DNA from: Ignavibacteria bacterium
GTDB lineage: Bacteria; Bacteroidota; Ignavibacteria; DATCTW01
DNA length: 64,000 nt
Assembly: GCA_036567745.1 (NCBI GenBank)
Contig: DATCTW010000054.1
Coordinates: 37,488 to 101,487, forward strand
Direction of reading: 5' to 3'
The translations under genes were made by a program, and so were the position numbers. This document shows positions 10,735 through 48,822 of this stretch, piece by piece (the stretch's first letter is position 1; the number at the start of each line of letters is the position of its first letter). The notes beneath the pieces were generated by a model. It did no database searches and was not told the DNA's origin. It worked only from the letters and a program-made list of their open reading frames with translations.

Positions 10735-11304
10735 TTATTTTAAGGTATAATTTAATAAAATAGATAATTCGGGTAAAGTATTTATCTTGAGCTCCAAATC
10801 GAGGTACTTAAGTATTTTTATCCCTTCTGAAATTTCAAAATAAATATTCTTTTTATTTTTTGAAAAATCATATTTAGCTCCTACACTAATAATTGGATCC
10901 TTAAAAGATAATAAGTTCTCAATTTCATAAAATTTTATTTGGCCATTTTCTGAGATAATTTTATAACTATCAGAGAATGAAGAAAAAGTTGTTTGTAAAA
11001 ATTCCGAATTATATAAACTTAAAACATTTATCATATCTTTTTCTTTTTTTATTTCGATTATATTTCGATCCTTTTCAATTTGTTTTATTTTTACCGAATC
11101 AAGTTTTTGATGTTTAATCACTTTAGGTTTTTTATTCTTCATTTTAATATTGGATTTTTCTTTTTCCCATTTCTGAAAAATTAAAGTATCTCTTACTATT
11201 TCTGTAAAATCGGATTTTCCAGTTGATTTAATATCATTTAATAAGTAACCTAAATAAAATATCAAGACTGAATATATTATAAATAAAATAATTTTAGAAT
11301 TCAT
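10735..11304 (-). CDS. hypothetical membrane-anchored protein
   Basis: N-terminal hydrophobic helix 'IILFIIYSVLIFYLGYLL'; Lys-rich; no recognisable motif. Confidence 0.4.
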   Translation of the reverse strand: MNSKIILFIIYSVLIFYLGYLLNDIKSTGKSDFTEIVRDTLIFQKWEKEKSNIKMKNKKPKVIKHQKLDSVKIKQIEKDRNIIEIKKEKDMINVLSLYNSEFLQTTFSSFSDSYKIISENGQIKFYEIENLLSFKDPIISVGAKYDFSKNKKNIYFEISEGIKILKYLDLELKINTLPELSILLNYTLK

Positions 11305-11305
11305 T

Positions 11306-11899
11306 TTATTCCCTGAAAGATATAAATCCTTTTAATTTCAACCAACCAAATTTATTTACAGCTCTTTTTTTAATAAAAACACCATCATTAGAATTATCTT
11401 CATTAGAGGTATTGCCTTCTAAAGTGATTATATAATTATTGTGATATTCAAGTAAAAAAGCTGTATGCCCCCAAATACTATTTGTTTTTTCAAAAATGAC
11501 CCAATCGCCATATTCGGGTTTTAAATAACTTTTTATTCCATGTTTTGAAACATAATTAAAAAGCAAAAGTGATTGGCCAGTTTTTAGCAAATTAAATTTA
11601 GTAAATAGCTCTGATGCAGCAGTTCTATATGCCCATTGACAAAAAGCAACACACCAAGCATTACCACTTTTCAGTTCTATTGAGTTTAGGAAGATATCAA
11701 TCCATTTACCTGAATTACTTTTTGGAGGAGTTTCTACTATACCTATCATATTTTTTGCTTTTTGCATCCCATTTTTTATTATTTCTTGAGAATTCTTTTG
11801 TTGAATAACATATTTAATTTGCGCCAAGCACAAATCCGACAAGCAAACAAATACCAGTAAAAGTAATTGCTGCAGAAATATTATTTTTAGATATCTCAT
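11306..11899 (-). CDS. CHAP/NlpC-P60-like amidase-fold protein (putative)
   Basis: Conserved Cys context 'GNAWCVAFCQW' and downstream 'WGHTAFLLEY' consistent with a Cys-His hydrolase; N-terminal signal-like segment. Confidence 0.45.
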   Translation of the reverse strand: MRYLKIIFLQQLLLLVFVCLSDLCLAQIKYVIQQKNSQEIIKNGMQKAKNMIGIVETPPKSNSGKWIDIFLNSIELKSGNAWCVAFCQWAYRTAASELFTKFNLLKTGQSLLLFNYVSKHGIKSYLKPEYGDWVIFEKTNSIWGHTAFLLEYHNNYIITLEGNTSNEDNSNDGVFIKKRAVNKFGWLKLKGFISFRE

Positions 11900-12146
11900 T
11901 TGTAAAGTTTACTCCTTTAAAATCGAATGTTTTAATTAAATATACAGTGCCACCACCTAACGATAAGTTAATAAGTTTGACTGATAGCATTTCAATTGTA
12001 AGCTCACCACTTAACAAAGCAATTAATAAAATGATGAGAGCAAATAATCCTAAAATATAATAAATTAAATATTCTCTTTTAAGCAACTCGTTAAGTTTAA
12101 TTGAGAATATTACACTCTTACTTTTTGCTACTGATAGAATTTTCAT
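11814..12146 (-). CDS. small integral membrane protein
   Basis: 110 aa with two predicted TM helices; overlaps the start of the downstream ORF by 86 nt, so one of the two starts may be misplaced. Confidence 0.4.
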   Translation of the reverse strand: MKILSVAKSKSVIFSIKLNELLKREYLIYYILGLFALIILLIALLSGELTIEMLSVKLINLSLGGGTVYLIKTFDFKGVNFTNEISKNNISAAITFTGICLLVGFVLGAN

Positions 12147-12343
12147 ATTACTTCCTTATTTAATTAAGCGATGGTAATATAAAAATAAATGTCTATGTTT
12201 GTTTGTCAAAAATTGTCAAAATACAATAATTAAATGAAACTTTTTAAGAAAGGAATAGATTGGTATTAGAAACTTTTGTTTAAATACAATATATTAATGA
12301 ATATTTTTAGAATATAAAAATTATTGTAAAGTATTTGATATGA

Positions 12344-14662
12344 CTATTCAATCTTTGAGGTTTTTATTTTAACATTATCAAGTGGATATGTAAATAGTTC
12401 ATCAACTGAAAAAACATTTGAAAAATCTTCAGCTGTAAAGAAAACTTTTAATTTATCAGCCATTTCAAACAATCTATTTTGATAGTATTCGATACTTTCA
12501 TCTCTAAAATTTGGGTTCCATTCTGAAGCTAATTTTAAGTTCTCACAACCGAAATAAATATCTTTAGGATTAATTTTTGTATCTAAAATTCCATGTGTAA
12601 GATTTTGCATTCTTTGAATTACTTCTTTATCAATATTTAATCTTTTATGAACTGCTTCATCACTAATAACGTAAAAAGAAATTTTATCATTAATTTTATA
12701 ATTTTTCCCAGTTGAAAGTGCAAGTTGGTAGTGGGGAATTATGTTCTTTTTATCATTTTTTACTTTAAAATTATAATCGCTTAAAGATTCTTTTATTATC
12801 TCTGTACGCATAAAATCAGAAATATCAAGTTTTCGATCTCTAATATCATTATAGTAAGATACAAATAGATTATGAATCTCTTGAATTTTATTATTTAAAA
12901 TATAATCTATACATTGTAGTAAAAATTTTCTGGCAAAATTTTCTAAATTATGAGGGAAAAGTAAATTCGTTTTCATTAAAATTTTGTTGTTATAGAGTAG
13001 AAAAGCCATATTTTTCTTTTTGTAGCTCAGTACTCGTCTTGCCCTAAATTTATACTCTATCCCTTCAACTTCTACCATTTTTTTTGAAAGCATCGAAACA
13101 TAGGATTTTTCAAGATCTTCATTAGTAACATCTCTTGGAGGAACAAATATTATCTCATTACCATCAACTTGAACAGGAATGCCCCCAGTATAAGATATAT
13201 ATTTTGTAATTTTTTCCATCAATTCTTTTGCTAGTTGAAAAACATTTTCGCCATATTCTTTCGAATTATAAATAACCCATGGTGTGTTAAGATATGAAAA
13301 AAAAGAATGTGAAAAGTTTTCAAGAGCTTTTTTAAAATCGGGTTCAAAGTTTTCTCTATCGCTTTCATTATCAGAACTTGATTCTGAAACTTCTTCAGGT
13401 TTAACGATATTCATTATATCTTGAAGCATTTTTTTAAATAAATCCAACGGATCTTTTTCTGATTTAAATTCTGATTTAAGAATAGCATTTTGATATAGCT
13501 TTATTACTTCGCATACAATTATTGGACCTAAAACCCCAGTATAGTATATTTCACTTATTTGACCTATAGATGGATCTGTTTTATCTGGTAAAGGTAAAGA
13601 ATATCTTTGTTTTAGATATTCACGGTATAAGATAGAATCTATTTTTTGTGCATTAGTTAATTTTAAAACTCTTCCTAAATTGTAAGAAATTAATCTGTTT
13701 AAATAAAAAACGGATGGTAAAAGTTTTTCGCAAATTTCATTTATAATGATGCAATTATTAAAAGGTTTTTCTGGTTCATCATTTGAAATTTTATCGTCGA
13801 TTTTAATATTAAATAAATTGATTATATTATTTAAAGATCCAATATCTTGTAACTTTTTTATTACATCGAACTGTAAAACAAGATCATTGATGTCAACAAA
13901 ATGTCTACCCGGAATTACAATTTTATTTTTTTCAAAGTCATAGTCATACTTGAAAAATCTTTCTTGTTTTTTAATGGGCAAAGAGTTCCTACCAATATTT
14001 AATTCAATATTAAACTCTTCACATTTTTTTATTAAAAAATCTAATGTATATGAATACAAATTATAACCCGCAATAATATCAGGGTCTTTTTCAATAATGA
14101 TTGATATGAATTCTTGTATTTTTTGAGCGTCATTTTTTCTATTGTCTTGAATAATTTTTTTCCAACCTTTATTATCTGTCAAAATAATTGCAGAAATTTC
14201 CTGATGTTTATCTTTTGTACTCTTTTTTGTGATAAGTTCTATATTAATTCTATATAAATCGGAAAAATTAAGACCTTTAAATAGTGTTTTACCGTACTCG
14301 ATAAGATATTGGCCAACAGGATCATTTTTAATACTAATTTCAATGAAATCTTTTTCAGAAATATTTTTTTTCTTTCTAATTGTATCAAATGCAAAATTAT
14401 AAGCATTTTTTAAATCATTCCAATTTTGAAAAACACATAAATATTTATAATAATTATTACCTTGCAATTTCTTTTTTAAAGGTTGAGGATTAAATTCTTC
14501 AAGTAATGAAATATCTGATATAAAGAAAAATGGATAAAACTCTCTATCTTCGTATGATACTATATTATTTATTTTTTTATAAACTCTAATAGTTTTTTCA
14601 TTTAGTTGATAACAGGCAATTATGTTTTGTTCAGGGTCTGAACCAAATAGAAAAGAAGTCAT
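12344..14662 (-). CDS. family-B DNA polymerase-like protein with degenerate catalytic motifs
   Basis: Exo II-like 'GYNLYSYTLDFLIKK' (cf. PolB 'GYNIQNFDLPYLI'); inter-domain 'LLPSVFYLNRLISY...ILYREYLKQRYSLPLPDK' resembling the archaeal PolB 'LSRLIGQ...LLRKAYERNELAPNK' stretch; Y-GG-like 'YYTGVLGP'; motif A-like 'CEVIKLYQNAI' (Asp to Glu); motif C-like 'VQVDGNEI' (DTD to DGN); KxY-region-like 'SKKMVEVEG'. Confidence 0.55.
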   Translation of the reverse strand: MTSFLFGSDPEQNIIACYQLNEKTIRVYKKINNIVSYEDREFYPFFFISDISLLEEFNPQPLKKKLQGNNYYKYLCVFQNWNDLKNAYNFAFDTIRKKKNISEKDFIEISIKNDPVGQYLIEYGKTLFKGLNFSDLYRINIELITKKSTKDKHQEISAIILTDNKGWKKIIQDNRKNDAQKIQEFISIIIEKDPDIIAGYNLYSYTLDFLIKKCEEFNIELNIGRNSLPIKKQERFFKYDYDFEKNKIVIPGRHFVDINDLVLQFDVIKKLQDIGSLNNIINLFNIKIDDKISNDEPEKPFNNCIIINEICEKLLPSVFYLNRLISYNLGRVLKLTNAQKIDSILYREYLKQRYSLPLPDKTDPSIGQISEIYYTGVLGPIIVCEVIKLYQNAILKSEFKSEKDPLDLFKKMLQDIMNIVKPEEVSESSSDNESDRENFEPDFKKALENFSHSFFSYLNTPWVIYNSKEYGENVFQLAKELMEKITKYISYTGGIPVQVDGNEIIFVPPRDVTNEDLEKSYVSMLSKKMVEVEGIEYKFRARRVLSYKKKNMAFLLYNNKILMKTNLLFPHNLENFARKFLLQCIDYILNNKIQEIHNLFVSYYNDIRDRKLDISDFMRTEIIKESLSDYNFKVKNDKKNIIPHYQLALSTGKNYKINDKISFYVISDEAVHKRLNIDKEVIQRMQNLTHGILDTKINPKDIYFGCENLKLASEWNPNFRDESIEYYQNRLFEMADKLKVFFTAEDFSNVFSVDELFTYPLDNVKIKTSKIE

Positions 14663-14941
14663 ATAAATTTATTTTTTTTGTTCTTGTTTATAATGAACTT
14701 TTCATTTTTTAAAATAATGAAAAATAATCTAATTGAATTACGTTAGATTATTTAAAAAATATAATATTTTCAATCTTCAAAAGCAATTACTAATTTAAAT
14801 CTTAAAGATTTTTCTTGACTGTATTTTTCTGGGATAAATTTAATTTATATTTTTATTTTTTTGTAATAATAATTTTATATTTGAATTAAATAAAAAATAT
14901 TGTAAATTATAAAATAGAATAATAAAATAAGGAAAATCATT

Positions 14942-35516: not shown

Positions 35517-38500
35517 TTATTTAATAAACATCATTTTTCTTGTTTGAGAAAAGTTGTTTACTTTCAAAATATAAAAATATACTCCGCTTGTAAGATCTTT
35601 TGGTATAAAATCAATTGAATAAGTGCCAGCAGGTTTGTATTCATTAACTAATTCTTCAACTTCTCTTCCATAGATATCAAATAGTTTTAGAGATACAAAT
35701 CCATTTTCTTTTATAGCATAATATATTCTTGTACTAGGATTAAATGGATTGGGATAATTTTGTTTTAACTCGTAACTTAAAGGTATCTCATTTTTATCGT
35801 TTACCTGAACGTTGGTTGTGGCTTCAGCTAAAATTACAATTTCATTATTTGATGTAATATCATTTGATAAAACTTTGATTTTTGCATCTTTTACACCAAT
35901 TGTTTTTGCTGTAAATTTTACTGTTACACTATCACTTTGACCTTCAGCTATATTATAGGGGTATGTTTTGTTTATTATTTCAAATTCAGAAGCATTATTA
36001 CCTGTTACCGTTATTCCAGATATTGTAAGAATTGCATTCCCAGAATTACCTATTCTAAAACCACTATACTTAATGTTATCTTTCATCACTTTTCCGAAAT
36101 CAACCTTTTGAGAAAGAATCATATTAGGTGCTGCTCCTAAACCAAATAAAGGTATTAACTTTTCAGGAATATTGGGGTCATTTGTTTTTAATTTTAAAAC
36201 AGAACTATAATTCTTTGGCTCATTAGGTGAAAACTTTATTACAATTATTTTTTCTTCTGCGGGTTGAATTTGAATTGGTAATGGAATATAGTTAACAAAA
36301 AATCCATCTGCGTTTATAAGTGAAACTGAGTCAACAATAAGAGTAGATAATCCATTATTTCTAATTTTTAAAGTTTTAATAGAACTATCTTTAACATTTA
36401 CTTTATTGAAATTAAAAGCAGAATCTGATAGTGTCATGATTGGGAATGATGAGTTGCCATTTAACAATATCTCGAAAATTGGTTTTTGTAAATCATTACT
36501 TTTAATTCTTAAAATTGCATTTGCTTGAGATAAACTTGATTGATATCTTATTACAATATTATCTGATTCACCAGCTAATAATGTAAAAGGAACAGATTTA
36601 CCGATTATTGAGAATCTATTCTTATTAGTGCCAATAATGTTCAATGAATCTATCACAAGAGGGGCATTCCCATTATTTTTGATAGAAATAATAGTATCTT
36701 TATAAAATCCAGTATTGACATATCCAAAATCTATTATGTTATAAGCTAAATAAAGAGAAGGTAATGAAGCTGTTTTTCCTGTACCTTTCAAAATGATATA
36801 ATCTTCTGGTTTATTTTGGTCATTACTTGTTATTACGAGTCTAGCGTATCTTAAACCAGTATCAGAGGGGATAAAGCTTACCTTGATATTTTTTTCTTCA
36901 TTTGGAGCTAAAACTATGTTATTGTAATTTGCTCCTAAAATAAAATCAGTATAAAATGCACCATCAAGATATATATTACCAATTTCAAGATTAGAGTTTC
37001 CATTATTTTTTATTACTATTTCAGTATCAGATTTTCCACCAATATCAGTTGTATTGTATTGAATTGTACTGACATATTTATATAAAGATGCATATTTAAC
37101 GTTGGCAATAATTGGTATGTTTAATATACTTAACGATGGATCATTTGAGTTTATACTAAGTTGTGCACTCTTATTTCCTCCAGGTAACGATGCATTAAAT
37201 CTAAATTTTACTGTATCAGATTGATTGAAAAGTAATGTTTTTGGAGAGTTATTAATGATAAACCCAAAACTTGAGTTATCACTTCCAGTGAATGAAAAAG
37301 ATGATAATATTAAATCGAGGTTGCCTGTATTTGTAATGATGAGAGTTGTATCTTTATATTTGCCTGCAACGCAGTCTCCCAGATTTATTGATGAATAATT
37401 TGTAGAAATTACAGCTTTGCCTCCTCCAAAACCAGTTAAGTTGATAGTTCTTATTGGAGTAAGATCATTACTTGTAATTGTGAGTGTTGCGTTTTTTATG
37501 CCGGCTGTATGAGGATAAAATAGTATTTGAACTGTATCATTAGCACCACTCTGCAATGATACATTAGTTTTTTTATTTAATATCTTAAAAGAAACTGTAT
37601 CCCCTGTGATAACTTTATCAAATAATGTAACAGTTACATTTGTTTTATTAAATGATGACTGTTTTAGTAAAGTTGAGGAGTTGTGGATTATCAAGTTTAA
37701 AGTCTTGCTTACCTGACCAATAAAAGTGCTATCAAAATTGATTGAAGAAGGTGTAAAAGTTAAATATGATTGTTGAACATTTGCGCTTACTGTAATAGTA
37801 AAACTAGTGTTATTCTTTGAGTTATTGTTGATTGTAATAGTTCCTGTTTTTACACCTAAAATATTAGGTTTTAACCTTATTGTGATGTAATATTTTTCGG
37901 ATGGATTTAGGATTACACCACTTGAAGGTAATGTAGTTGTAATTTCAAAGGAAGAGTCAGCAGTTGCTAATCCCACAGAGAATATTTTAAGTTTATAAGA
38001 ACCAGTGTTTGTTATTTCAATTGTAGAATCTTTATTGCCCGAACCTATTCCTACGACCCCAAAATTAATTGTAGTTTTATTTGCAGCTATTATCGAACCA
38101 AATACTTTTCCAGTTACATTCAAATTTGCTGTAGGTTGATTGCCTGAATTATTGTTGAAAGTGATTGTTCCTGAAAAAGTGCCAACAGAATCAGGGTTAA
38201 ATCTTATTTTAATATTTTTACTGCTATTAGGTGATACTTTAATAGGTAACGTTTCATTTAGTGAAAACTTATTGTTACCTCCTGTATATACTACAGATGT
38301 GATAACTAATGAATCAGTTAATGATGTGTTTGTAATTAACAGTAAAGAATCACTTGGCGTAGACAAAAATCCTAATGAATCAAAGTTTATTGTGGTTTTA
38401 TTTTGACTCCAGACTGAGCTACTTGCAATTCCATTACCACTTAAAGGCACATTCAAAGTCGCCCCGGCACCACCATAAGAAATTATTAGGTTTGCACTTT

Positions 38501-40889
38501 TTGAGCCTATACTAACTGGAGAAAATCTAATTGTTATAACCTGATTTGATGATGGAGTAATTGTAAGAGGTAATGTGGGTGGAGATACTAAATGAAAAGA
38601 AGAAGTATCTGTTCCGGAAAATGTAAAACTATTTATTATTAAATTAGCTAAACCAGAGTTTGTAATAGTTATTGTTTTATCGCTATATTGTGATGTTTTT
38701 ACGTCACCATAAGATAGCGATGTTGGGTTTACACTTATAGCAGCTAAAGGTGTGGCTGTAAAATTTGCAGTAGTTTGATTAGCACTTAGATTAGTATAAT
38801 TTCTACTCGAAGGTGAAAAGCTATAATTCGTTTTGGATGGTGTTAATGTATAGCTTCCACCTGCAGAAAGATTTGAAAAAGTAAATACACCTGATGAATT
38901 TGTAGTTGTTGAACCAGAAGAGCTACCTGAAAGTGTTACTGTTACTCCACTTATAGGGTTATTACTACCATCTTTTATTGTCCCACTTATAGAATATGTA
39001 ACAGGTGAAGATGTAGACCAACCCATATCCGCCATTTGATTTAGTACAATAGAACCTGGAGAATGTATGGCTTCTCCGTTAGCAAGTGCATAAGTCATTA
39101 AATTATTTCCGCTACCGGGTGGATATGTTGATTCATCAAGGTGATAAATTGAAGATCCACCTGACCATGCTGCAGGTGCATACAATCTTGCAGTTCCAGT
39201 GTTTGGTCCATTCCACCATAAATTATTTCCTGTTAGTTGATTTCCTAAATCTGTAGAAGGGTTAAAAAATATACCGGTATTAATCAGTAGTTGGCTTGAA
39301 CCATTATAAATAAATCTATCGAATATGTAGGGATAGTGATAAGTTGGATCCCCCCACGAACCTACGCCTCCGGAATAGCTAAAGGAGCCAACATAACCTA
39401 AACCATGACATAACTCGTGCAATACTACTGATACAAAATCATATTTTGTAAATGGAGTATTGCCATCTGTCCCGAAGTACCAATTGGAAAAATCACTGTT
39501 AAAATTAGCATTTATATCTGGATTTGTGTTTAAGTTTAATCTATCACCATTAATTTTTTCAGCAAGTGCAACAGGATACCATGTATTAGCATAAGGTTGA
39601 TTATTAAAACCTGTATAAGATGTAGAGGGTCCTGCACTACCCAGTATTCCTGAACCTAATGAGGTGTATGTTGCATTTACACGAATTGGAACTGACGAGG
39701 TTATGAGAGAAGCCCATATATCAATAGCATATTGAAATGCTGCTTGTGCTTCGGCACTAAATCCTGTATATGTTACAATTATTGTAGCTGCATTGGTTTT
39801 ATTTTGTTTATTCTTATAAAATTCAATTGGTGGAGGTAAATAATATCTTTGAATTTCGTCTGAGGCTTTAACATACATATATCTATCATTGGGTCTGGCA
39901 ACAATTAATTTTTTGGGTAGTTCAATCCAATTAATACCGCCATCGGTAGATTTAAAAACAGAACCAGAAGATGAACCAGCAATAATATTATTTTTCTTAA
40001 AAGAAATAAATTCAGCTGATCTTATTGAATAATCGAAATTTGTTTTTTTCCATACATCTCTTTCTTCATCAAGTATATACAATCCATTATCATAAGTAGA
40101 GAGAAAAACTTTGCCATTAATATCTGTAGTAATAAATTTTATTTTTTTAGTTCCTAACCCATCATTCAAGGCTGTGATTGTAGTACCACCATCTTTAGAA
40201 ATAAAAATACCATTGTTAAAGGTTGTAAAATATAAAGTGTTATTATAGTTTTTGATATCAGTAATATTTTCTCCGCTTATAAAATTGTTTATTTTGATCC
40301 ACGATGAACCTTTATCGTATGATTCATATAAACCTTTTTCTGTACCTACAATTATTTTTTTATTCAAAGAGGTGATTGGAGCAATAAGAATTTTTTCAGG
40401 TAAGGTACTAACTTTCTGCCAGTTTTTTCCTCCGTCTTGTGATTTATAAACTATTCCATTATCATCAACTAGAATCAAATCATTATCAACTTGGATGATA
40501 TTCCTATAAGCATTATTTTTTGGTAAGTTAGAAATTATTTGCCAGTATTGCGATGAATTGTCAAAAGAATATATACCTAAACCTGTAATTGCAAAGAGTT
40601 TGTTATTGCTATCTAAGAATAATTTACGGATATCATAAGATTCTAATCCTTCACTGACCCTAAACCACAATATCCCTTCATCAGTTGATTTCCATATACC
40701 TGCACCCCAGGTGCCAGCAAAAATTTCTCCATACTGATTCACTACGGTTGAATATAAAGGGCGAAATTGAAGTTCTCTTCTTAACTCTTCAATATTTTGC
40801 TGCGAAAAAGAAATCACAACAAAAGTTAAAGTTAATAAAAGAGAATATTTAAATAATTTCGTAAAATTATAAATCATCTCAAACCCCAC
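35517..40889 (-). CDS. giant T9SS-secreted surface protein: N-terminal BNR/Asp-box beta-propeller, HEXXH zinc-metallopeptidase-like domain, many Ig-like beta-sandwich repeats, C-terminal Por sorting domain
   Basis: Signal peptide; repeated 'S-x-D-G-G-x-x-W' BNR boxes; 'VVLHELCHGLGY' (coded around 39395-39420); repetitive T/S/N-rich beta-sandwich modules; C-terminus 'GVYFYILKVNNFSQTRKMMFIK' typical of T9SS CTDs. Confidence 0.8.
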   Translation of the reverse strand: MGFEMIYNFTKLFKYSLLLTLTFVVISFSQQNIEELRRELQFRPLYSTVVNQYGEIFAGTWGAGIWKSTDEGILWFRVSEGLESYDIRKLFLDSNNKLFAITGLGIYSFDNSSQYWQIISNLPKNNAYRNIIQVDNDLILVDDNGIVYKSQDGGKNWQKVSTLPEKILIAPITSLNKKIIVGTEKGLYESYDKGSSWIKINNFISGENITDIKNYNNTLYFTTFNNGIFISKDGGTTITALNDGLGTKKIKFITTDINGKVFLSTYDNGLYILDEERDVWKKTNFDYSIRSAEFISFKKNNIIAGSSSGSVFKSTDGGINWIELPKKLIVARPNDRYMYVKASDEIQRYYLPPPIEFYKNKQNKTNAATIIVTYTGFSAEAQAAFQYAIDIWASLITSSVPIRVNATYTSLGSGILGSAGPSTSYTGFNNQPYANTWYPVALAEKINGDRLNLNTNPDINANFNSDFSNWYFGTDGNTPFTKYDFVSVVLHELCHGLGYVGSFSYSGGVGSWGDPTYHYPYIFDRFIYNGSSQLLINTGIFFNPSTDLGNQLTGNNLWWNGPNTGTARLYAPAAWSGGSSIYHLDESTYPPGSGNNLMTYALANGEAIHSPGSIVLNQMADMGWSTSSPVTYSISGTIKDGSNNPISGVTVTLSGSSSGSTTTNSSGVFTFSNLSAGGSYTLTPSKTNYSFSPSSRNYTNLSANQTTANFTATPLAAISVNPTSLSYGDVKTSQYSDKTITITNSGLANLIINSFTFSGTDTSSFHLVSPPTLPLTITPSSNQVITIRFSPVSIGSKSANLIISYGGAGATLNVPLSGNGIASSSVWSQNKTTINFDSLGFLSTPSDSLLLITNTSLTDSLVITSVVYTGGNNKFSLNETLPIKVSPNSSKNIKIRFNPDSVGTFSGTITFNNNSGNQPTANLNVTGKVFGSIIAANKTTINFGVVGIGSGNKDSTIEITNTGSYKLKIFSVGLATADSSFEITTTLPSSGVILNPSEKYYITIRLKPNILGVKTGTITINNNSKNNTSFTITVSANVQQSYLTFTPSSINFDSTFIGQVSKTLNLIIHNSSTLLKQSSFNKTNVTVTLFDKVITGDTVSFKILNKKTNVSLQSGANDTVQILFYPHTAGIKNATLTITSNDLTPIRTINLTGFGGGKAVISTNYSSINLGDCVAGKYKDTTLIITNTGNLDLILSSFSFTGSDNSSFGFIINNSPKTLLFNQSDTVKFRFNASLPGGNKSAQLSINSNDPSLSILNIPIIANVKYASLYKYVSTIQYNTTDIGGKSDTEIVIKNNGNSNLEIGNIYLDGAFYTDFILGANYNNIVLAPNEEKNIKVSFIPSDTGLRYARLVITSNDQNKPEDYIILKGTGKTASLPSLYLAYNIIDFGYVNTGFYKDTIISIKNNGNAPLVIDSLNIIGTNKNRFSIIGKSVPFTLLAGESDNIVIRYQSSLSQANAILRIKSNDLQKPIFEILLNGNSSFPIMTLSDSAFNFNKVNVKDSSIKTLKIRNNGLSTLIVDSVSLINADGFFVNYIPLPIQIQPAEEKIIVIKFSPNEPKNYSSVLKLKTNDPNIPEKLIPLFGLGAAPNMILSQKVDFGKVMKDNIKYSGFRIGNSGNAILTISGITVTGNNASEFEIINKTYPYNIAEGQSDSVTVKFTAKTIGVKDAKIKVLSNDITSNNEIVILAEATTNVQVNDKNEIPLSYELKQNYPNPFNPSTRIYYAIKENGFVSLKLFDIYGREVEELVNEYKPAGTYSIDFIPKDLTSGVYFYILKVNNFSQTRKMMFIK

Positions 40890-48641: not shown

Positions 48642-48715
<74 letters not shown>

Positions 48716-48719
48716 CAAT

Positions 48720-48822
48720 GAGGTCAAGTCCTGTGCAATTAAGAGTTGCCAAACCCCGTCAGGTCCGGAAGGAAGCAGCGGTAGGCAAATTTCTAATGTG
48801 ACGCAGGTAAACTTGGCCTCTT
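48720..48822 (+). ncRNA. ffs: small signal recognition particle RNA (4.5S-type)
   Basis: Contains conserved domain IV core 'GTCAGGTCCGGAAGGAAGCAGC'; 5' GAGGTCAAGT pairs with 3' ACTTGGCCTC to close the hairpin; followed by an 8-T run. Confidence 0.7.

Follow-up and report, generated by a model that had tools for sequence, protein, structure and literature searches.

A probable pseudo-polymerase of the B family, under purifying selection, in an Ignavibacteria genome

Within a 64,000-nucleotide stretch of an Ignavibacteria metagenome-assembled genome (MAG; contig DATCTW010000054.1, positions 37,488 to 101,487), hereafter the window, one gene on the minus strand encodes a relative of the family-B DNA polymerases (PolBs). 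Its open reading frame (ORF) runs through 772 codons without interruption, and the product comprises N-terminal, exonuclease-like, palm, fingers and thumb domains.

12344..14662, minus strand: ORF of the PolB-fold protein, complete, 772 amino acids

NCBI labels this protein 'hypothetical protein' (HEY9188321.1, Ignavibacteria bacterium MAG), and metagenomic contigs of up to 1.5 Mb as well as one NCBI MAG encode an identical product. A preliminary description, made from the sequence alone, had presented it as an orphan PolB homologue with apparently degenerate catalytic motifs, and had named as possible outcomes an inactivated or repurposed protein, structural or defence-related, and a highly divergent active enzyme. 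Our data lead us to favour, with a probability of roughly 0.72, a pseudo-polymerase: a protein that keeps the PolB fold, has lost both catalytic centres and is under selection for a DNA-binding, non-catalytic role. On sequence grounds, its identity and its loss of catalytic residues appear well supported.

PF03104 (DNA_pol_B_exo1) matches residues 162-262 of the protein (E=6.4e-7; 29.4 bits against a gathering score of 23), and PF00136, the polymerase domain (DNA_pol_B), gives no match even at E<=10. Homologues at 45% identity or less do match PF00136, and relatives with E-values down to 1e-134 carry both PolB Pfam domains. A phmmer search of all PDB sequences returned the archaeal PolBs Pfu, KOD, 9N and Tgo at E about 1e-7 via the Exo II region. 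It also gave a weak yet collinear palm alignment of residues 437-590, in which 'VQVDGNE' stands opposite 'LYIDTDG' and ENFSHSFFSYLN of the window protein stands opposite KLLANSFYGYYG of archaeal PolB. An AlphaFold2 model built from a 29-sequence alignment is confident, with a mean predicted local distance difference test score of 86.7 and a predicted template modelling (TM) score of 0.78. Foldseek, run with this model against the PDB, places only archaeal PolBs among its top 50 matches (E 1e-32 to 1e-26), 9N, KOD, Pfu and Tgo included, and the alignments are full length, with about 820 columns and a TM score of about 0.6. These matches lie far outside what chance would give, and the protein is a genuine PolB homologue over its full length. 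The profile and structure searches that the preliminary description had proposed thus bear out its view of a PolB homologue with motifs in order, as do the Pfam domains of the relatives.

Ordinary orthology to Pol II, the outcome that would have made the protein unexceptional, is ruled out: the NCBIfam Pol II equivalogs score 44.5, 22.6 and 21.2 bits against cutoffs of 570, 1103 and 1435, and these matches are weak, partial and confined to the exonuclease domain. In a comparison of the family profile with the PDB, Pol II scores E about 1e-23 and the archaeal PolBs about 1e-61. The window protein shares the domain order of E. coli Pol II (group G1 of bacterial PolBs) but, with scores so far under the equivalog cutoffs, is not its orthologue.

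The protein is also less isolated than first described. A search of 5.8 billion proteins gave 67 matches, which sort into three tiers: P0001-P0009, a tight clade with 45-99% identity, whose members mostly lack a PF00136 match; about 40 proteins at 27-34% identity that carry both PolB Pfam domains, some of them named 'Bacteroidota bacterium'; and a group at 26% identity with one member labelled Verrucomicrobiota. An exhaustive HMMER scan of 1.84 billion cluster representatives recovered 834 homologues, the close ones being only P0002 and P0068. GTDB species genomes contributed at least 80 loci; among the matches listed, the best reaches 34% identity, and neither the window genome nor its clade appears above that level. 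With at least 10 full-length close relatives at 45-99% identity and hundreds of more distant homologues, 'orphan' was an overstatement.

We set the register of the catalytic motifs with a family profile aligned to Pfu and P. abyssi PolB. In this register LDIET is Exo I, GHNxxxFD Exo II, YALDD Exo III, DVESLYPS motif A, KILINSFYGY motif B, EVDTDG motif C and KKKNYA the KxY motif. Sixteen motif positions, each 100% conserved in 20 intact relatives, were scored. The window protein retains four of them (N201, Y390, D500, K550) and has replaced the other 12, so the catalytic residues are not intact. The features that bear on this result are as follows.

14228..14242, minus strand: Exo I remnant I141-E142-L143-I144-T145 (IELIT; L-D-I-E-T in intact relatives), with Asp replaced by E142 and Glu by I144
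14168..14179, minus strand: 'TDNK', residues 162-165, in an 'LSDNxGW' block, with D163 invariant; not a catalytic motif
14033..14068, minus strand: Exo II remnant GYNLYSYTLDFL, residues 199-210, with N201 kept and Asp replaced by T206
13745..13768, minus strand: Exo III remnant KPFNNCII, residues 299-306, with Tyr replaced by K299 and Asp by N303
13586..13630, minus strand: inter-domain block LYREYLKQRYSLPLP, residues 345-359, with R347, Y349 and P357 invariant
13544..13570, minus strand: degenerate Y-GG region SIGQISEIY, residues 365-373 (TTGGYTDIF in intact relatives)
13478..13516, minus strand: motif A remnant VCEVIKLYQNAIL, residues 383-395, with Asp replaced by E385 and Y390 kept
13391..13405, minus strand: fingers helix with V420 and E424 in place of an Arg and a Lys that are invariant in polymerase-intact relatives
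13283..13333, minus strand: motif B remnant KKALENFSHSFFSYLNT, residues 444-460, with K/N/Y/G of KxxxNSxYG replaced by E448/H452/F455/S456
13142..13177, minus strand: motif C remnant PVQVDGNEIIFV, residues 496-507, with D500 invariant, the distal Asp replaced by N502 and the Glu by Q498
12998..13030, minus strand: KxY region LSYKKKNMAFL, residues 545-555, with K549 and K550 kept and Tyr replaced by M552

Most of the substitutions proposed from the raw sequence stand in this alignment. The Exo II-like stretch at 14033-14068 is indeed present, with a Thr at its catalytic Asp; the Exo III Tyr and Asp are gone; the motif A Asp is a Glu (within 13481-13513); and the motif C DTD reads DGN (D500-G501-N502, within 13151-13174). 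Exo I is dead as suggested, DIET having become ELIT at residues 142-145, but it had been placed at 'TDNK', which belongs to the LSDNxGW block that most family members, among them intact enzymes, have in common. The Y-GG-like element is itself degenerate. The inter-domain stretch resembles archaeal PolB as described, since LYREYLKQRYSLPLP aligns with archaeal 'LLRKAYERNE.APNKP', and this block is strongly conserved among dead and intact family members.

Further losses, beyond those in the preliminary description, affect the K/N/Y/G of motif B, the KxY Tyr and the fingers Arg and Lys. In PolBs, the fingers Arg and Lys contact the triphosphate of the incoming deoxynucleoside triphosphate (dNTP); from a hand count on the profile alignment, we take V420 and E424 to be the equivalents of Pfu R461 and K465. 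Three other residues are fixed in the degenerate clade and absent from intact relatives: N303 and C304, both within the Exo III remnant, and C706, with which a thumb insertion described below ends.

Could the protein nonetheless be an active, highly divergent DNA polymerase that works with non-canonical carboxylates (E385, D500 and E503), in the manner of archaeal PolB2/Dpo2 or piPolB, both of which work with an altered motif C? Every member of the clade has D500 and an acidic residue, Asp or Glu, at 503; Y390, the steric-gate Tyr of motif A, does not vary either, and the palm too is under purifying selection. Predictions of inactivity have also been overturned for PolB2 (PMC8764526; discussed in PMC7544198). 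However, the replaced positions vary within the degenerate clade, so an alternative catalytic constellation is not likely: the motif A Asp position holds E, S, T or G (with S, T or G in sister lineages), the motif B Lys position E, K, N or R, and the distal motif C Asp position N, E or D. All three basic residues that would bind the dNTP phosphates have been lost (V420, E424 and E448), and the fingers are the least conserved part of the protein, residues 401-450 having 2% invariant columns in the clade versus 16-38% elsewhere. The KxY Tyr and the Y-GG element are lost as well, and PolB2 itself keeps an upstream Asp and the distal motif C Asp (PMC2527604, in a reviewer remark), neither of which the clade keeps consistently. 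Because no catalytic set is conserved, the triphosphate-binding basic residues are gone and the Asp residues of PolB2 are not kept, we regard an active enzyme as unlikely.

Loss of function in the catalytic sense is not matched by relaxed selection on the gene. Between the window gene and its counterpart at locus L087 (89% identical), the ratio of nonsynonymous to synonymous substitution rates (dN/dS) is 0.081 at a synonymous divergence (dS) of 0.68, and it stays at 0.03-0.12 across 100-codon blocks. For the neighbouring genes of the same two loci it is 0.10 (M28 peptidase), 0.09 (birA) and 0.18 (coaX). A second sublineage gives similar values, 0.10 for P0006 against P0008 and 0.09 for P0005 against P0008, with pta at 0.086. 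Full-length members of the clade measure 765-798 amino acids and have intact frames; P0068 is a partial sequence of 644 amino acids.

These values bear directly on the idea of a decaying gene or incipient pseudogene in a low-GC, possibly streamlined genome. Decay would fit the wholesale loss of catalytic motifs, the further loss in the window sublineage of a C-terminal tail and an adjacent receiver gene (see below), and the GC content of the locus (0.20-0.27, mildly below the rest of the window). It is at odds with frames that are intact in every full-length member at 45-99% identity, with dN/dS of 0.08-0.10 equal to that of housekeeping neighbours, with the gain of a conserved insertion, and with an upstream region that is 91% identical while dS is 0.68. 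Neither a broken frame nor a dN/dS near 1 was found, and we consider decay very improbable. The profile, structure, alignment and selection analyses together support an inactivated or repurposed PolB that is not decaying, one of the outcomes named at the outset. A non-enzymatic role is likely because the catalytic residues are lost yet purifying selection is strong; of the repurposed roles that had been suggested, we therefore favour the structural one, in the sense of a non-catalytic function.

The best non-degenerate matches are PolBs of Bacteroidota, Ignavibacteria, Kryptonia, Chlorobium, Prosthecochloris and Rhodothermales genomes, and the GTDB loci carry the labels Ignavibacteria, Kryptonia, Chlorobium, Prosthecochloris, Chlorobaculum, Thermochlorobacter, Rhodothermales and Salinibacteraceae, among others. 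Judged from sequence, the pseudo-polymerase descends from a bacterial PolB family of Chlorobi, Ignavibacteria and Rhodothermia, and the window protein appears to be one of many degenerate versions in that family.

Among bacterial PolBs, G3 is the second-largest group and, to our knowledge, has never been characterised by experiment. We assign the family to G3 (Kazlauskas et al. 2020, Pol-epsilon-N-like) by inference from its taxonomic distribution and from the Glu upstream of DTD in the relatives. G3 is reported from eight phyla, including all Chlorobi with one copy each, and to share ancestry with Pol epsilon, specifically its N-terminal half. A conserved motif C Glu, shared with Pol epsilon N and B10, marks the group; its exonuclease and polymerase sites are reported as conserved, and a beta-clamp motif is reported as well (PMC7544198, PMC12926913). 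The closest relatives in this group (26-34% identity, E down to about 1e-140) have the same length and the same N-terminal/Exo/Pol architecture as the window protein. All 20 intact relatives carry E-[VAL]-DTD in motif C (E-x-DTDG overall), the E-x-DTD being the reported G3 synapomorphy. The window protein has Q498 at this position (Q498-V-D-G-N), so the mark is absent; it further differs from G3 in lacking both active sites and the C-terminal tail, and in having gained a 31-residue thumb insertion.

Degeneration is spread across the family. When 249 members were classed at 11 motif sites, 174 scored as exo+ pol+, 42 as exo- pol+, 27 as exo- pol- and six as exo+ pol-, three of the last looking like intein artefacts. 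Among MAGs labelled Ignavibacteria, L010, L016 and L017 have dead Exo motifs and intact polymerase motifs, and in L065, L067, L070, L055 and L038 motif A, B or C is degenerate besides Exo. Neighbour-joining trees, built within the family only, group the window clade with degenerate Ignavibacteria loci and about 35 more degenerate clusters; these trees are distance-based and long-branch attraction is likely. No two of the at least 80 genome loci listed come from one assembly, a pattern weakly consistent with the degenerate gene being the sole G3 copy of its genome, the MAGs being incomplete.

Two other variants were seen in the family. P0087, P0091 and P0139 have all five Exo residues intact (DEDYD) and motifs A, B and C degenerate, and could be stand-alone proofreading exonucleases inside a PolB shell. 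P0050-P0066, at about 26% identity, have dead Exo I and Exo III (ELDRA for DEDYD), intact polymerase motifs and a C-terminal QxxLL, and by their motifs appear to be a G3-like polymerase lineage deficient in exonuclease.

If catalysis is gone, the surfaces that remain may indicate what is selected. Among columns that are at least 90% Lys or Arg in intact enzymes, 78% remain basic in the window protein. The losses are concentrated in the fingers, and the palm and thumb keep nearly all of their conserved basic residues (R540, R543, K549, K550, K564, R578, R619, K624, K639, K710 and R730). Two C-terminal features also belong here.

12545..12637, minus strand: clade-specific thumb insertion NIDKEVIQRMQNLTHGILDTKINPKDIYFGC, about 31 amino acids, residues about 676-706
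12386..12415, minus strand: C-terminal block VFSVDELFTY, residues 750-759 (IFSxxDLFGF in most intact relatives)

The insertion is common to the whole clade, from the window protein to P0009/P0068, and is absent from all other family members. We envision the following properties for the pseudo-polymerase. With V420 and E424 in the fingers and E448 in motif B replacing basic residues, it would no longer bind dNTPs productively; with E385 in place of the Asp of motif A and N502 in place of the distal Asp of motif C, it would not carry out nucleotidyl transfer; and with all three Exo motifs lost, it would not excise 3' ends. The grip on primer-template DNA would be kept, as the conserved basic residues of palm and thumb and the KKKN segment suggest. 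Such a protein would probably bind DNA or act as a scaffold during replication or repair without catalysing a reaction itself; for example, it could occupy or mark primer termini, or use the new thumb insertion to recruit a partner.

A more specific version of this proposal, which we hold only tentatively, is that the protein is a non-catalytic subunit that works with another polymerase as a clamp- or SSB-tethered adaptor (SSB, single-stranded DNA-binding protein), comparable to ImuB with DnaE2 or to the inactive C-terminal half of Pol epsilon. Scaffolding by inactive polymerase homologues is well documented, and the literature reports a beta-clamp motif for G3. Within the protein, an internal FSxD[DE]LFx[YF] block is common to dead members and most intact ones, and some members of the degenerate clade keep short acidic tails with a hydrophobic end (EEEVF, YFEEIL). 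The tail of the window protein argues the other way. The protein stops 13 residues past VFSVDELFTY and, like P0002, is without the acidic linker and the extreme C-terminal motif of intact relatives, which have GIWL[DE] tips in the Ignavibacteria type (L010, L016, L005, L051), EE[VI]PF in Chlorobi and Rhodothermia (L019, L080, L042, L064, P0045) and QxxLF/QxxLL in P0067 and P0050. Because this tail is lacking, tail-borne binding of a clamp or partner cannot be assumed for the window protein. We also found no polymerase or clamp gene linked to the degenerate PolB in any locus examined.

The DELF block itself was considered as a clamp motif and downgraded, since intact relatives have a separate motif at the extreme C-terminus that is absent here. 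The EE[VI]PF tip of intact relatives strikingly resembles the DDDIPF tip of bacterial SSB; the literature names only a clamp motif for G3 (PMC7544198, PMC12926913).

The surroundings of the gene are those of an ordinary chromosomal locus. Upstream lie a divergent M28 peptidase gene, then birA and coaX; downstream follow genes for a DUF350-like membrane protein, a CHAP-domain protein and a 189-amino-acid protein, then a convergent pta and a FadL-type porin gene. The PolB-like gene had been described as opposite in strand to its neighbours, which is true of the upstream M28 peptidase gene but not of the downstream ORFs at 11814-12146, 11306-11899 and 10735-11304, all on the same strand. The downstream block is syntenic at L081, where the PolB-like protein is 59%, pta 85% and FadL 79% identical. 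The context of the gene is chromosomal, syntenic and non-mobile.

This context weighs on a reading of the gene as part of a mobile element or of anti-phage defence, whether a casposon- or pipolin-like self-synthesising element or a defence polymerase. PolBs do occur in mobile elements (PMC7544198), and the flanks here are AT-rich, with a GC content slightly under that of the rest of the window. Nevertheless, PADLOC-DB models assigned no family to any of six proteins (the PolB-like protein, its three downstream neighbours, and the receiver and a 137-amino-acid protein of L081), and the flanking genes pta, birA, coaX and those for the FadL-type porin and M28 peptidase are housekeeping neighbours. 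Downstream synteny is preserved even at 59% protein identity, no integrase, terminal repeats or tRNA lie nearby, and the nearest relatives of the protein are PolBs encoded on the chromosomes of FCB-group bacteria. A mobile element or an island acquired by horizontal transfer is rejected on these grounds, composition being only mildly lower, and the defence-related role once suggested finds no match. We give this reading the smallest chance of those considered; it and the pseudogene reading are rejected because of the selection and context data.

Linkage at other G3 loci is sparse. When the neighbours from the window and L081 were compared by tblastn with a set of loci that included 80 genomic G3 loci, pta turned up at L027 alone, at a distance of about 9 kb, and the same comparison showed no linkage to BioY, RecX or ComEC. 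The intergenic regions on either side of the PolB-like gene hold further features.

12147..12343, no strand: AT-rich spacer of 197 bp, downstream; five sister lineages have a CheY-like receiver gene here
L081:12344-12709, L086:12324-12692, L088:4089-4460, L089:2798-3169 and L090:3289-3660: the CheY-like receiver genes
14663..14941, no strand: AT-rich divergent intergenic region of 279 bp, shared with the M28 peptidase gene, 91% identical to L087
14725-14750, no strand: perfect palindrome TAATCTAA-N10-TTAGATTA, about 65 nucleotides upstream of the ATG

In the lineages of P0003, P0004, P0005, P0006 and P0008, a stand-alone CheY-like receiver (PF00072, 121-123 amino acids) starts 12-20 bp past the stop codon of the PolB-like gene. 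This short distance suggests that the two genes are probably in one operon in these sister lineages. The receiver gene evolves faster than the PolB-like gene (dN/dS 0.23-0.40).

On the upstream side, the 279-bp region is 91% identical between the window and L087 despite a dS of 0.68. The arms of the palindrome are identical in L087, and two changes fall in the spacer. The palindrome occurs once in the window and elsewhere only in near-identical relatives among the loci scanned; it is a candidate operator. A promoter and terminator scan was uninformative in this AT-rich DNA and found no intrinsic terminator.

Several points count against a selected, non-catalytic pseudo-polymerase. D500 is invariant and position 503 is always acidic, and together with E385 these residues may form a non-canonical carboxylate cluster. 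Archaeal PolB2 was likewise predicted to be inactive and was later found to be an active translesion synthesis (TLS) extender (PMC2527604, PMC8764526). The extreme C-terminal tail, probably the carrier of the partner or clamp motif in intact relatives, is missing. By tblastn, no receiver homologue is present within the 64 kb of the window, which leaves the gene there with no such partner. Finally, among the 60 PDB matches listed, the best for the family profile are archaeal B3-type enzymes and Pol epsilon does not appear.

Archaeal PolB2 and bacterial G2 (the 'inactivated' PolBs of Rogozin et al. 2008; Dpo2) are conserved PolB paralogues that have disrupted Exo motifs and a non-canonical motif C, as here, and a structural role was first proposed for them too. 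In PolB2 two Asp residues remain, the distal one of motif C, which goes with a group-specific D(K/R) motif, and one further upstream, taken as the motif A Asp; in the degenerate clade, by contrast, the proximal motif C Asp is conserved, while the motif A position varies and so does the distal one (N502 in the window protein). PolB2 is an active TLS extender (PMC8764526). The sequence neighbours of the window protein are G3-like, not B2/G2. No conserved partner pair of the kind seen in the PolB2/G2 mutasome was found at degenerate-clade loci, the partner profiles not having been searched directly.

Inactive polymerase homologues are already known, among them the C-terminal half of Pol epsilon, ImuB, iPolY and the eukaryotic B-subunits, and exo-dead PolBs are common. 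The C-terminal module of Pol epsilon is a dead PolB fold that acts as an essential non-catalytic scaffold (PMC7544198), but it is fused to an active PolB and has zinc/Fe-S domains and CMG contacts, none of which is present here, and we see no sign of specific relatedness to the window protein. ImuB and iPolY are bacterial polymerase homologues without catalytic residues that are conserved as adaptors in TLS complexes. ImuB differs in belonging to another fold family, in its linkage to imuA and dnaE2, and in its clamp and RecA-NT motifs; for the window protein we found neither linkage nor motifs of this kind.

We found no report in the literature of a doubly inactivated bacterial PolB of the G3 group. 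The locus reveals full-length derivatives of the G3 group that lack exonuclease, dNTP-binding and catalytic residues and stay under strong purifying selection, in the window clade and apparently in many related lineages. They would add a B-family member to the inactive homologues ImuB, iPolY and the Pol epsilon C-terminal half, and they suggest that in bacteria a polymerase fold of the replicative type can have a function other than catalysis. The natural series exo+pol+, exo-pol+ and exo-pol- provides material for asking what G3 does. Automated annotation divides such proteins between two labels: 'hypothetical protein' hides the homology, and 'DNA polymerase' implies an activity that, on sequence grounds, is almost certainly absent.

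One could envision a broader scenario, which we regard as doubtful, in which the only family-B polymerase gene turned non-catalytic across a sizeable radiation of Ignavibacteria. Exo activity would have been lost first, then dNTP binding and catalysis, under housekeeping-level constraint, with a thumb module and, mostly, a receiver as operon partner. If so, selection on G3 PolB in FCB-group bacteria, where it is widespread, would act at least in part on a structural or regulatory role. This would parallel, in bacteria, the half of eukaryotic Pol epsilon that is inactive yet essential; G3 is reportedly related to that polymerase. The receiver could then link phospho-signalling to replication or repair.

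Other observations concern the remainder of the window. Immediately downstream on the minus strand, the CHAP ORF (11306-11899; 197 amino acids from the first possible start) overlaps the DUF350-like ORF (11814-12146) by 86 nucleotides, and in near-identical JGI contigs gene callers give only a 102-amino-acid product there (L083:12517-13144). At 35517-40889, also on the minus strand, lies a gene for a 1790-amino-acid protein with many Ig-like/ASH/HYDIN-type repeats, DUF1573 and a C-terminal Por_Secre_tail of the type IX secretion system (T9SS); its domains suggest that it is likely a giant secreted or surface protein. On the plus strand, a tRNA gene (48642-48715) is followed after a gap of 6 nucleotides by the small bacterial signal recognition particle (SRP) RNA (48722-48821).

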